From IMG/VR virus record IMGVR_UViG_2531839532_000007: a stretch of DNA of 8,294 bases; one strand, given 5' to 3'. Source of the DNA: a virus. Taxonomy: Duplodnaviria > Heunggongvirae > Uroviricota > Caudoviricetes. The position numbers and the translations under genes are program-made. This document shows positions 1,403 through 8,270 of this stretch, piece after piece (within the stretch, counting starts at the first letter, position 1; every line of letters starts with the position of its first letter). The notes under the pieces were generated by a model. The model did not search any database and was not told the origin of the DNA. It was given only the letters and a program-made list of their open reading frames with translations.

Positions 1403-1606
1403 CATTTTCACTTTTTTAAATCCAACGACAGACGGCTGGCATTTAAGTATTGTGAAATATTATCAAATGTAATCATCATTGATTTACAAAAGATACATTT
1501 TGCCCCGAAAGGATTCATGTCAGAAACATCAAAAGATGATGTTCTATACTGGGAACCATGACAACACGGGCATCTAAAGTGAATATGGTTTGTAATATTG
1601 TCTACC

Positions 1607-1819
1607 TCAAAGCGCCACTACATGAACAGCGGCAGGACCTTTAGGTCCGTTCTCAATACCAAATTCAACTTCCTGATTCTCAGTTAATGTTTTGAAATCG
1701 TTGCTCTGAATTGCTGAGAAATGGACAAACACATCTTTGCTGCCATCTTTCGGCGTGATGAAACCAAAACCTTTTTCAGGGTTAAACCATTTCACTAAAC
1801 CAGTCATTTTGTTAGACAT
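1607..1819 (-). CDS. cspI: Cold-shock protein CspI (CspA family, 70 aa)
   Basis: [70 protein letters not shown] carries the RNP1/RNP2 motifs (KGFGFI, VFVHF). The leader ends in AAAGGTAATAATT-ATG, like the cspA leader. Confidence 0.95.
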
Positions 1820-1999
1820 AATTATTACCTTTTGAAGAAATTAGCCCTTGGGCAGAATGGTCCGAAAAAAAATATCAGAGAGAAAAACCAACAAGGAAAT
1901 CTCAAGAGGTACAAATAATAAAATTATAACAATGACTGCTTCAGATAAATTTGTAACAAACCAGAACACCATTAACGCATGATTAACCACCCATAGCAA
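1820..1999 (-). promoter_or_regulatory. cspI promoter (-35 TTGCTA at 1999..1994, -10 GTTAAT at 1976..1971) and ~145-nt 5' UTR
   Basis: cspA-type architecture with a 17-bp spacer and an AT-rich upstream region. The 11-mer ATGCGTTAATG spanning the -10 is identical to that of the cspB promoter in this window. Predicted leader length is about 145 nt. Confidence 0.45.
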
Positions 2000-3956: not shown

Positions 3957-4127
3957 ATGTCAGAACGTAAAAACTCAAAATCACGCCGTAATTATCTCGT
4001 TAAATGTTCCTGCCCAAACTGCACCCAAGAGTCAGAACACAGTTTTTCAAGAGTACAAAAAGGTGCCCTTTTGATCTGCCCTCATTGCAACAAAGTATTC
4101 CAGACAAATCTTAAAGCTGTAGCCTGA
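3957..4127 (+). CDS. Small zinc-ribbon protein (56 aa, CxxC…CxxC), antisense to the late operon
   Basis: MSERKNSKSRRNYLVKCSCPNCTQESEHSFSRVQKGALLICPHCNKVFQTNLKAVA with an AGGAAA Shine-Dalgarno 6 nt before ATG 3957. The ORF-track start at 3906 has a poorer Shine-Dalgarno. It may correspond to a small Qin protein annotated in recent K-12 releases, but I cannot name it with confidence. Confidence 0.5.
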   Translation: MSERKNSKSRRNYLVKCSCPNCTQESEHSFSRVQKGALLICPHCNKVFQTNLKAVA

Positions 4128-4180
4128 TTGATTTTATTAGTAACAAGTATTTTTTATATTTTAATAATATATTTAAAGCA

Positions 4181-4208
4181 GATAATAAAAAACCCGCCTG
4201 AGCGGGTT
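4181..4208 (-). terminator. Intrinsic terminator (strong on minus strand, weak on plus) between cspB and the zinc-ribbon ORF
   Basis: Perfect 7-bp stem AACCCGC-CTGA-GCGGGTT; the minus-strand reading is followed by UUUUAUUAUC. It lies about 280 nt downstream of the cspB stop. Confidence 0.55.
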
Positions 4209-4490
4209 TGAGATTGTGGTGCTTTTTGTGGGAGTCATCCACTTACGCACTTTGTTTTGCCATGCCAGCAGTTAGCTTCTGCTGTAAAACTATTCATGCA
4301 GCAAACCTGCACTTCACCACAATGGTTAGCATACTTTTCCTGATTAAGATTTTGCCAAATATGCTAGCCATTGTTTCATGTATTGGACCTCCTTACTTTT
4401 TATTAAAGAGATCCAATATTCACTACTCTGTCCGTATCTCTACTCAGGCATCAGCCTTCTTCGTTATCGTATACAGACGAGCGATGAATT

Positions 4491-4706
4491 TTAATCAGTA
4501 ATGATGACATTTGCTGCTGCAGGACCTTTAGCACCACTCTCTATAGAGAAGGTAACCTTTTGACCTTCAAATAAGGTTCGATAATTATCATTCTGAATCG
4601 CAGAAAAATGCACAAACACATCTTTACTACCATCAACAGGAGAAATAAAGCCGAAACCTTTATCAGCGTTAAACCATTTTACTAAACCAGTCATTTTATT
4701 TGACAT
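4491..4706 (-). CDS. cspB: Cold-shock protein CspB (CspA family, 71 aa)
   Basis: [71 protein letters not shown] with RNP motifs; AAGGAA Shine-Dalgarno upstream; divergent from cspF as in K-12. Confidence 0.95.
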
Positions 4707-4849
4707 TCTACATTCCTTAACTTGAGCCTTTCGGCATAAATGGTTTGCATAACAGAAACGACTTCGTACTTAATTGGAGAGACTCAAAGAAGGAATAAGT
4801 GAATAACACCTGAAATGAGAACTGCTTTAGTAAACTACTTCGTATATCG

Positions 4850-4902
4850 TCTGTTCTTCAAACCGACGCAATCATTAACGCATAGTTGAACATATGAAGC
4901 AA
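4850..4902 (-). promoter_or_regulatory. cspB promoter (-35 TTGCTT at 4902..4897, -10 GTTAAT at 4879..4874) with a cold-box-like element (TGAAGAACAGA, 4860..4850)
   Basis: 17-bp spacer and AT-rich UP-like region. The element just after the predicted start site matches the cspA cold box TGACGTACAGA at 9 of 11 positions. Predicted 5' UTR is about 160 nt. Confidence 0.45.
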
Positions 4903-5006
4903 TGTTTATTTTAGACATCCAGCCATCTTCAACCCCATCAAAAAACTATAGCTTTCTTCAGGAACGTGTGTATAGTGCGCCAAGTTATCAGTATTAAGGA
5001 ATTTTT

Positions 5007-5219
5007 TTGTCCCGTAAAATGACAGGAATTGTCAAAACCTTTGACGGCAAAAGCGGCAAGGGTCTTATCACCCCATCCGATGGTCGTATCGATGTCCAGC
5101 TTCATGTTTCAGCGCTCAATCTCCGCGATGCAGAAGAAATTACCACCGGATTACGCGTGGAATTTTGCCGGATAAATGGTCTGCGTGGCCCTTCAGCTGC
5201 CAATGTTTACCTTTCATGA
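5007..5219 (+). CDS. cspF: Cold-shock-protein paralogue CspF (70 aa)
   Basis: [70 protein letters not shown]. The 70-aa form starts at a TTG (5007) with AAGGA 8 nt upstream; the first ATG is at 5019. The RNP motifs are degenerate, as expected for CspF/CspH. Confidence 0.88.
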
Positions 5220-7457: not shown

Positions 7458-7736
7458 TTACCTCCAGATCCGTTGCTGGAAAGTGCGGGACGCACGTGGT
7501 GGGCGTTCGGAATAAGGCAGCCTGACAGAGATTATCCAGTGCCGATAGTCGAGACTGAGAGCTTTCTTAACCTCGAACCCGCGCCTGCGGTAAGAATGAA
7601 TCAGCCATTCGGCCTGTTCTGCAGTGCATGGAGGGTGCTGGAACCATTCAGACTTGAATGCGTGAGAATACCGCCCGTGCGTGCAGGCAAGAACGGGCGA
7701 ATTATCAGAATTGTAATATTTTGCGTTGCGTGCCAT
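7458..7736 (-). CDS. Hypothetical 92-aa protein translationally coupled to the DUF968 gene
   Basis: ATG 7736 with GGAG 8 nt upstream; the TAA stop (7458..7460) sits inside the ydfU Shine-Dalgarno (GGAGGTAAcGTG). Product MARNAKYYNSDNSPVLACTHGRYSHAFKSEWFQHPPCTAEQ… is Cys/His-containing; no family recognised. Confidence 0.5.
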   Translation of the reverse strand: MARNAKYYNSDNSPVLACTHGRYSHAFKSEWFQHPPCTAEQAEWLIHSYRRRGFEVKKALSLDYRHWIISVRLPYSERPPRASRTFQQRIWR

Positions 7737-8170: not shown

Positions 8171-8202
8171 AAAATAAAAACAAAAACCCGCCGAAGCGGG
8201 TT
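8171..8202 (-). terminator. Intrinsic terminator of the upstream (hok-containing) transcription unit
   Basis: Stem AACCCGC-CGAA-GCGGGTT; the minus-strand reading is followed by UUUUUGUUUUUAUUUU. It sits about 70 nt after the hok-like stop codon. Confidence 0.6.
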
Positions 8203-8270
8203 AAGTGCGGGTGCGTTGAGGATGCCTGCCACATCAGAGGTGGCGAGGGATTTCTCCCCCGCCGGGTCTC

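Follow-up and report, generated by a model that had tools for sequence, protein, structure and literature searches.

Evidence for a structured RNA module in the 3' untranslated region of the prophage cold-shock gene cspB

Results

The interval between cspB and ynfU

The 8,294-nt stretch of DNA analysed here (the window; IMG/VR record IMGVR_UViG_2531839532_000007) corresponds to the Qin cryptic prophage of Escherichia coli K-12, with window positions equal to NC_000913.3 positions minus 1,636,848. Our subject is the segment that follows the cold-shock gene cspB (4491..4706, minus strand; annotated b1557 in NC_000913.3; CSD domain, Pfam E 9.8e-32), which is probably a structured 3' untranslated region (3'UTR). 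Besides cspB, the minus strand of the window carries quuQ, essQ, ydfR, rrrQ, rzpQ and cspI, and the plus strand carries cspF and ynfU. The annotated ynfU gene (3957..4127, plus strand) encodes a small zinc-ribbon protein (Pfam PF23499, NCBIfam NF038384) and converges on cspB, and NC_000913.3 has no annotated gene in the interval between them. Of 5,426 complete E. coli genomes, 1,640 contain a 371-nt region of this locus, in nearly all cases as a single copy. The sequence of the 3'UTR element is unique within the K-12 genome and is not a repetitive extragenic palindromic (REP) element. Since ynfQ follows cspI at once, cspI, unlike cspB, has no long 3'UTR.

A preliminary description of the interval had drawn attention to a consensus Shine-Dalgarno (SD) sequence, TAAGGAGGT (4395..4387, minus strand), followed by a 7-nt spacer, CCAATAC, and an ATG (4379..4377). 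The ATG opens an 11-codon open reading frame (ORF) that encodes MKQWLAYLAKS and ends at a TAA at 4346..4344 (whole mini-ORF 4344..4379, minus strand). The cspB stop codon, TAA, was read directly at 4493..4491 of the minus strand, and the mini-ORF ATG lies 111 nt past it. On re-reading, all the statements of that description about the letters themselves were correct, including those on the terminator downstream and on a short stem, CAGCAG-AAGCTAA-CTGCTG (4284..4266, minus strand). It had also held that so good an SD is unlikely by chance. The SD is present, but this argument is weaker than claimed. The window contains one AGGAGG-N4-10-ATG where 0.32 would be expected, and 54 of 200 dinucleotide-preserving shuffles (27%) contain at least one. 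In 8.3 kb the SD-ATG pair by itself is therefore statistically unremarkable. The complete 9-mer is less common, yet it is accounted for as one arm of a 14-bp hairpin.

The cspB 3'UTR is predicted to fold into several domains

The complete 3'UTR (4493..4181, 313 nt) has a minimum free energy (MFE) of -105.2 kcal/mol (z = -7.57), and none of 100 shuffled sequences was equally stable. Its domains, all on the minus strand, are from 5' to 3' a hairpin immediately after the stop codon (H0), a lineage-specific hairpin (Hv), an 8-nt linker, a long hairpin (H1), a four-way junction of helices P1-P4 and a terminator shared with ynfU. In the MFE fold, H0 (4430..4478) consists of an outer stem (GTCTGTAT/ATACGGAC), a GA-rich internal loop (ACGATAACGAAGA / GAGTAGAG) and an inner hairpin, AGGC-TGAT-GCCT. 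Hv (4382..4417) is found in both the MFE and centroid folds and pairs a 5' arm, AUUGGAUCUCUUUA (4417..4404), with a 3' arm, UAAGGAGGUCCAAU (4395..4382), through 14 bp closed by an 8-nt loop; alone it contributes -18.3 kcal/mol. The SD at 4395..4387 falls within the 3' arm of Hv, and its calculated probability of being unpaired is at most 0.002 at 10, 15, 25, 37 and 42°C. A different pairing of the SD, with an AUCUC upstream of the terminator, was given by a truncated fold; it is gone from the full-length fold and is without covariation, and we rejected it.

Downstream of Hv, the single-stranded linker ACAUGAAA (4374..4381) leads into H1 (4320..4373), in which CAATGGCTAGCATA (4373..4360) pairs with TATGCTAACCATTG (4333..4320). 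H1 has a variable loop and a conserved mismatch, which is C.A or C.C. Codons 3-7 of the mini-ORF form its 5' arm, and the mini-ORF stop codon sits in its loop. The four-way junction (4213..4323) is closed by P1, formed by ATTGTGGTG (4323-4315) and CACCACAAT (4221-4213), and encloses P2 (4312-4296), P3 (4284-4266) and P4 (4242-4228). Two of its strands, CAUGAA.AGU and AAAGUGCGUAAG, and the P3 loop GAAGCUAAC (AAGCUAA) are invariant.

H1 and P1 have one strand in common. This strand X (4323..4320, ATTG in K-12) can pair with either of two CAAT copies, at 4370..4373 or at 4213..4216. Pairing with the 5' partner extends H1 and pairing with the 3' partner extends P1; the two are mutually exclusive and score equally (96.1% and 95.7% paired). 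Across lineages strand X and its partners change in concert, GATG occurring with CATC/CGTC and GTTG with CAAC/CAAC. Judged from the aligned sequences, such dual pairing is compatible with a two-state switch.

The element travels with csp genes in prophages, phage-plasmids and islands

The first homologues came from a distant BLAST comparison with phage genomes: in Cyrano and PHB10 the distal part of the element follows csp-like genes, and compensatory changes are obvious. Scans by pattern added more than 120 viral contigs, 29 genome loci and 52 metagenome contigs, and a search for related loci with CspB returned only identical Qin copies. The element is found in Escherichia, Shigella, Kosakonia, Enterobacter, Phytobacter, Kluyvera, Superficieibacter, Pseudescherichia, Raoultella, Leclercia and Atlantibacter, and 92 copies reside on Cyrano/SSU5-like phage-plasmids in E. 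coli. Overall, at least 10 enterobacterial genera have H0, H1 and the junction conserved after csp genes, be it in prophages, phage-plasmids or islands. A csp ORF, whose product is 62-100% identical to CspB, almost always ends on the same strand 110-210 nt upstream of the element.

The usual cassette, seen in many genera, comprises a divergent cspF, the csp gene with its RNA, and a convergent ynfU (window 3957..5219; also our loci L004, L127, L128, L130, L131 and others). ynfU is a frequent but not an obligatory member, being present in about half of the cassettes (tblastn synteny, 27 loci). YnfU was considered as a Com-like RNA-binding activator; it matched only generic zinc ribbons and its own family, and in view of its presence in about half of the cassettes this candidate was set aside. 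In Kosakonia, Enterobacter and PHB10 the cassette adjoins umuDC, an SOS-response-associated (SRAP) peptidase gene and a tail-fibre assembly gene, i.e. it lies at a prophage end.

Copies fall into types A to D, of which type A comprises Escherichia and Shigella copies. H0 is missing from type B copies, Hv is conserved in type A alone, and in types B and D no canonical terminator hairpin follows P1. At the position of Hv, Cyrano and one further locus (L104) carry unrelated hairpins. A natural deletion variant occurs in Escherichia sp. E1V33 (L143, about 7460..7700), in which CspB is 99% identical; here a short GGG/CCC hairpin stands in place of Hv with its SD, the mini-ORF and H1, and H0 and the junction are kept.

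Three further observations concern individual copies. In Raoultella lignicola (L139, about 4440..4560) the strand joining P2 and P3 shows a tandem expansion, about sevenfold, of an 8-nt unit, GCCTGAAA; P4 also contains mismatches, and from its sequence this copy is possibly decaying. A 97-amino-acid ORF antisense to the structured UTR (window 4208..4501, plus strand) is annotated as a hypothetical protein in phage PhiR42_1 (L005, 2495..2770), and a 41-amino-acid ORF over H1, P2 and P3 is annotated in phage PHB10 (L004, 2450..2575). Both protein annotations over the RNA element are probably spurious. At one locus (L151) the element seemed to be preceded by a longer ORF and by genes other than csp; this locus was discarded as an error-ridden assembly, its flanking genes matching in several frames and no RefSeq E. 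coli genome matching it.

Compensatory changes support H0, H1 and the junction

Covariation in H1 and the junction was assessed over 35 base pairs in an alignment of 32 sequences (22 in an earlier version). Standard pairs occupied 95.7% of the cells and changes on both sides were found in 13 of the 35 pairs. None of 500 column shuffles matched the observed value on any of five measures, and pairing dropped to only 22-56% when the partner strand was slid by 1-3 columns. For H1 considered separately, 93% of cells were paired and four pairs had changed on both sides. RNAalifold, run blind, returned the same helices, H1 and the junction included. The outer stem of H0 behaved similarly, with both-sided changes in seven of eight pairs, 90% pairing, no shuffle out of 500 reaching the observed score, and slid controls at 19-43%. 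Because the alignment contains many G.U pairs, the fold belongs to the csp sense strand. The preliminary description had noted "several short stems" in the interval, and these turn out to be helices of a conserved structure with covariation support. On this comparative evidence, we propose the csp 3'UTR four-way junction as a conserved structured RNA motif, whose helices are backed by compensatory change.

The junction core is 73-84% identical to that of K-12, compared with 69-81% for the csp coding sequence (CDS) and 45-70% for third codon positions (45-58% in 10 of 11 loci). The P3 loop GAAGCUAAC and the strand AAAGUGCGUAAG do not vary among copies, and a scan made without requiring the P3 loop found no variants of it. 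Lineage variants of Hv leave its pairing intact, namely GGAGAT, where G.U becomes A-U, and a C-to-T substitution on the 5' side of the stem.

The internal loop of H0 (4438..4470, minus strand) contains two conserved blocks, AACGA[AT]GA and GAGU[AG]GA (GAGT[AG]GA in DNA), which are kept in types A, C and D. They allow possible tandem G.A pairs and an AGUA/GAA arrangement that may resemble loop E/sarcin-ricin motifs.

Could this conservation reflect no more than the recent horizontal spread of one cassette, with functionless helices and an SD-ATG pair due to chance? All copies come from Enterobacteriaceae and their phages and represent few lineages, and relatedness can inflate shuffle-based tests. 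However, the csp proteins encoded next to the element are as little as 62-75% identical when the RNA core is 73-84% identical with its changes concentrated in compensatory pairs, the slid-partner controls retain the relatedness and still fall to 22-56%, and the stems vary where the loops are invariant. We therefore consider this explanation highly improbable.

The 11-codon ORF is confined to one lineage

The preliminary description had suggested that the 11-codon frame could be a mini-ORF or a regulatory ORF, and had named conservation of the SD-ATG pair across cspB loci beforehand as a test. The pair is not conserved in orthologous loci, and on this test the ORF reading fails. SD and ATG are present only in the type A copies of Escherichia and Shigella; they were not found in types B, C and D, nor in Cyrano, the PHB10 type and the Kosakonia/Kluyvera/Enterobacter types, and are deleted in E1V33. 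Within type A the ATG is kept in 103 of 103 copies and GGAGG in 94 of 103, but since these copies are at least 95% identical to one another, conservation of the ATG carries little weight.

Nor did the codons behave as coding sequence. The substitutions seen in the mini-ORF among type A copies (L5P, K10I, S11T, A9V, S11P and W4stop) are all non-synonymous or nonsense (six of six, none synonymous), and one copy reads MKQ-stop; there is thus no sign of purifying selection on the peptide in what is a small sample, of six substitutions, at low divergence. L5P instead tracks pairing in H1. The K-12 codon CTA gives a U-A pair opposite the A of CTAACC, CCA in most other type A copies gives the C.A mismatch, and in lineages with CTGACC a C-G pair results. 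An accessible ribosome-binding site was also not predicted, the SD being paired with a probability of at least 0.998 over the range 10-42°C in silico. The mini-ORF is absent from the NC_000913.3 annotation, although neighbouring small ORFs derived from ribosome profiling are annotated there, and no mention of the peptide MKQWLAYLAKS was found in the literature searched.

If the mini-ORF were nevertheless translated, it might give rise to a functional micropeptide, or act as a regulatory ORF that melts H1, shifts the balance between H1 and P1 pairing and so changes the fate of the 3'UTR. Such an idea has some appeal. The 9-nt SD is perfect and stands at the ideal 7-nt spacing from an ATG that type A copies retain, the frame runs through the 5' arm of H1 and stops within the loop, so that translation would open H1, strand X covaries with two partners, and real small proteins (YnfU, YnfS, YnfQ and YnfR) are encoded nearby. 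Against it stand the enclosure of the SD in a hairpin of -18.3 kcal/mol, the restriction of SD and ATG to a single lineage, the pattern of substitutions with L5P following H1, the missing annotation and literature record, an SD-ATG pair that is not unusual by chance, and a dominant RNA that terminates inside the ATG (see below). Taken together, these points make translation very unlikely, and constraints on the RNA in one lineage most likely gave rise to the 11-codon ORF as an incidental by-product.

An abundant RNA ends between Hv and H1

RNA 3' ends were taken from the curated Term-seq ends of E. coli MG1655 in three conditions (Adams et al, 2021; PMC7815308, Supplementary file 1). An "orphan" end at 1641226 on the minus strand, window position 4378, has a score of 604,404 in LB at an optical density (OD) of 0.4, and an end at 1641224 (minus strand; window 4376) has scores of 1,233,565 in LB at OD 2.0 and 2,464,295 in M63 (PMC7815308). 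In the same table ssrA scores 2.2M/0.93M, csrB 1.2M/3.9M, rydB 2.2M/4.1M, lpp 176k, spf 92k and cspE 95k (PMC7815308). The 4378/4376 end is therefore among the strongest RNA 3' ends in E. coli, with a score in the ssrA/csrB range. The two positions lie in the linker, 4 and 6 nt past Hv; 4378 is the T of the mini-ORF ATG and 4376 the first base of codon 2.

Hv is not followed by a U-tract, and no sigma-70-like promoter was found on the minus strand between 4370 and 4720. For these reasons 4376/4378 resembles an end left on a cspB-derived RNA by processing and exonuclease trimming, and an own promoter for the abundant RNA was rejected. The 118-nt RNA from the stop codon to 4376 folds into H0 and Hv, two compact hairpins with a combined -43.2 kcal/mol. 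For cspB itself, the same study (Adams et al, 2021; PMC7815308) reports a 3' end in the 5'UTR (1641634; window 4786, minus strand) and, near the start of the ORF, a region of Rho-dependent termination (1641537; window about 4689, minus strand); this is the premature termination already known for cspB at 37°C. Searches with the peptide, the cspB 3'UTR and the coordinates found no literature that discusses this 3'UTR RNA.

The terminator, AAACCCGC-TCAG-GCGGGTTTTTT (4184..4209, both strands; terminator scan match 4209..4190), is common to the convergent cspB (minus strand) and ynfU (plus strand). It is a GC-rich hairpin with U-tracts on both strands. The plus-strand Term-seq end 1641060 (window 4212; PMC7815308), which is the end of ynfU, falls at this hairpin, and the terminator is accordingly bidirectional. 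On the minus strand, no end is listed at the cspB terminator (16410xx) in the three conditions, all at 37°C (PMC7815308).

These data bear on the proposal, made in the preliminary description, of a small RNA (sRNA) derived from the 3'UTR. Part of it stands, in that a discrete and abundant RNA end exists; the lack of a discrete transcript, which that description had offered as grounds for refutation, hence does not apply. However, the RNA ends upstream of the body of the ORF, and no terminator-ended RNA is recorded at 37°C. The dominant end inside the ATG is likewise at odds with the ORF reading.

The abundant RNA ending at 4376-4378 could itself be functional and more than a remnant of decay, for example as a stable RNA that binds a protein through the GA-rich internal loop of H0. 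Its Term-seq score lies in the range of ssrA, csrB and rydB, H0 shows covariation and conserved internal-loop sequences, and the 118-nt fragment is compact. Yet this end may belong to nothing other than full-length cspB mRNA, conservation of Hv stops at type A, type B copies have no H0, and the fragment has no promoter of its own. On balance this seems unlikely.

A second possibility is that the distal part (H1, the junction and the terminator; about 190 nt) is released as a trans-acting sRNA, whose invariant loops would pair with targets and whose terminator would bind Hfq or ProQ. CpxQ and SroC are 3'UTR-derived sRNAs of similar layout. A canonical terminator with a U-tail directly follows the junction, the invariant single-stranded GAAGCUAAC and AAAGUGCGUAAG would be apt as a seed or for protein binding, and a break between Hv and H1 would free the fragment. 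It counts against such an sRNA that no minus-strand Term-seq end is found at the terminator in any of the three conditions, that types B and D lack a canonical terminator hairpin after P1, and that, in the portion of the RIL-seq-based predictions available to us, the entries cspF.cspB.IGR (the cspB 5' region) and cspB CDS have a very low sRNA probability. We regard release of a distal sRNA as rather improbable.

Discussion

Comparison with known RNA elements

An Rfam 15 scan of the whole window, with a sensitive scan of 4170..4495, gave within the element only terminator-driven matches of 11-22 bits, below their gathering scores. A tRNA- or tmRNA-like element was rejected, as ARAGORN found no genes in the window and the junction strands, at 11 and 23 nt, are unlike those of a tRNA. 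Elsewhere in the window (8181..8262, minus strand) the scan gave a weak match to isrK, a Salmonella prophage sRNA (25.1 bits, E 0.034; gathering score 50), where a hairpin is followed by a terminator-like hairpin with a U-tail.

A 3' end just past a stable stem, with no U-tract, is the expected signature of 3'-to-5' trimming back to a protective stem. In this respect the cspB 3'UTR resembles the stem-loops that block exonucleases, such as REP and bacterial interspersed mosaic elements (malE-malF) and hairpins that stall PNPase or RNase II, since the stable Hv lies 4-6 nt upstream of the abundant 3' end. It differs from them in that Hv is only one of several domains, and that H0, H1 and the junction covary and have invariant loops, which a simple barrier would not need.

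With 3'UTR-derived sRNAs (CpxQ, SroC, SdhX and GlnZ) the cspB RNA shares an origin in the 3'UTR of a stress gene, signs of processing and a nearby intrinsic terminator. Unlike them, its stable species ends upstream of the terminator and is much more structured than seed-bearing sRNAs, and the available part of the RIL-seq-based tables (RNA interaction by ligation and sequencing) shows no sign of Hfq association for the cspB region.

Structured RNA that controls cold-shock genes is known within the same gene family, in the cspA thermoregulator (RF01766) and the 5'UTR thermometers of cspG and cspI (PMC13271884). Indeed, RF01766 matches cspB with 158.8 bits (4867..4475) and cspI with 112.8 bits (5'UTR and CDS of cspI, 1580..1965, minus strand). 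That model, however, covers the 5'UTR and CDS, and its match ends at 4475 with the 3' end of the model unaligned, whereas the element occupies 4490..4216. The published study by mutational profiling with dimethyl sulphate (DMS-MaP) covered 5'UTRs only.

FourU and ROSE thermometers resemble Hv in that a U-rich UCUCUUU pairs with the SD, G.U pairs included. In contrast to a FourU element, Hv is located in a 3'UTR, before an 11-codon ORF and not before a regulated gene. A FourU thermometer (RF01795) was rejected as a candidate, with 16.6 bits at 4384..4415 against a gathering score of 60, an unpaired probability of 0.002 at 42°C and no predicted melting.

Finally, SgrS/SgrT, Spot 42/SpfP and the 8-codon YmdG also have a very short ORF with a strong SD inside a structured RNA, and for these both translation and peptide function have been shown experimentally (PMC8916003; 10.1101/511675). 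The cspB 3'UTR departs from such dual-function RNAs in that its mini-ORF has an occluded SD, is confined to one lineage and is missing from the main RNA. The element thus appears to be a structured bacterial 3'UTR element, or processed 3'UTR RNA, with an undescribed motif.

A model for the role of the element

Our preferred interpretation is that the segment 4213..4490 is probably a multi-domain structured 3'UTR of about 300 nt belonging to the prophage cold-shock gene cspB, and not a spacer with a hidden gene. The most likely function of the element is that of a cis-acting module for processing or stability. We envisage that the primary cspB transcript would run to the terminator and then be cut in or downstream of the linker, either in the AU-rich linker itself or in the loop of H1. 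3'-to-5' exonucleases would trim the product back to Hv, and an exonuclease-resistant RNA would accumulate, being either the cspB mRNA or a fragment of about 118 nt that comprises H0 and Hv. The part consisting of H1, the junction and the terminator would not accumulate at 37°C. The junction and H0 together may act in cis to recruit or resist the decay machinery, or to bind a protein, and would thereby set the lifetime and 3' processing of the csp mRNA.

Several considerations weigh against this interpretation. The function proposed is drawn from the position and anatomy of the element. The invariant loops point to a specific partner, be it protein, RNA or ligand, and a passive barrier to exonucleases would not need them. 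All known copies belong to one bacterial family and to few lineages; the shuffle control does not correct for relatedness, and because the copies come from few enterobacterial lineages the compensatory changes represent few independent events. In addition, the Term-seq data are for 37°C only, cspB is cold-induced and the picture may differ in the cold, and ligation bias can distort Term-seq scores.

A bolder proposal is that the element represents a previously undescribed class of structured RNA, characterised by the GA-rich loop of H0, the four-way junction with its invariant loops and a two-state helix exchange. Such an RNA might specifically sense or bind a protein or a ligand, or respond to temperature, and would direct processing of the mRNA and yield one of the most abundant unannotated stable RNAs of K-12, possibly functional in lysogens that bear the cassette. 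We put this forward only tentatively and consider it doubtful.

Implications

For annotation, the locus is a caution that a textbook SD-ATG pair can arise from constraints on RNA structure. It also indicates that E. coli K-12 still holds an unnamed RNA structure supported by covariation and tied to a Term-seq end as strong as those of ssrA and csrB, which has apparently not been followed up. In many Enterobacteriaceae, temperate phages, phage-plasmids and islands carry the element together with the cspF/cspB/ynfU cassette, and this joint travel suggests an accessory function under selection. The csp mRNAs are a classic example of regulation through 5'UTR structure and mRNA stability, and a conserved module in the 3'UTR would give a second handle on the lifetime of csp mRNA.

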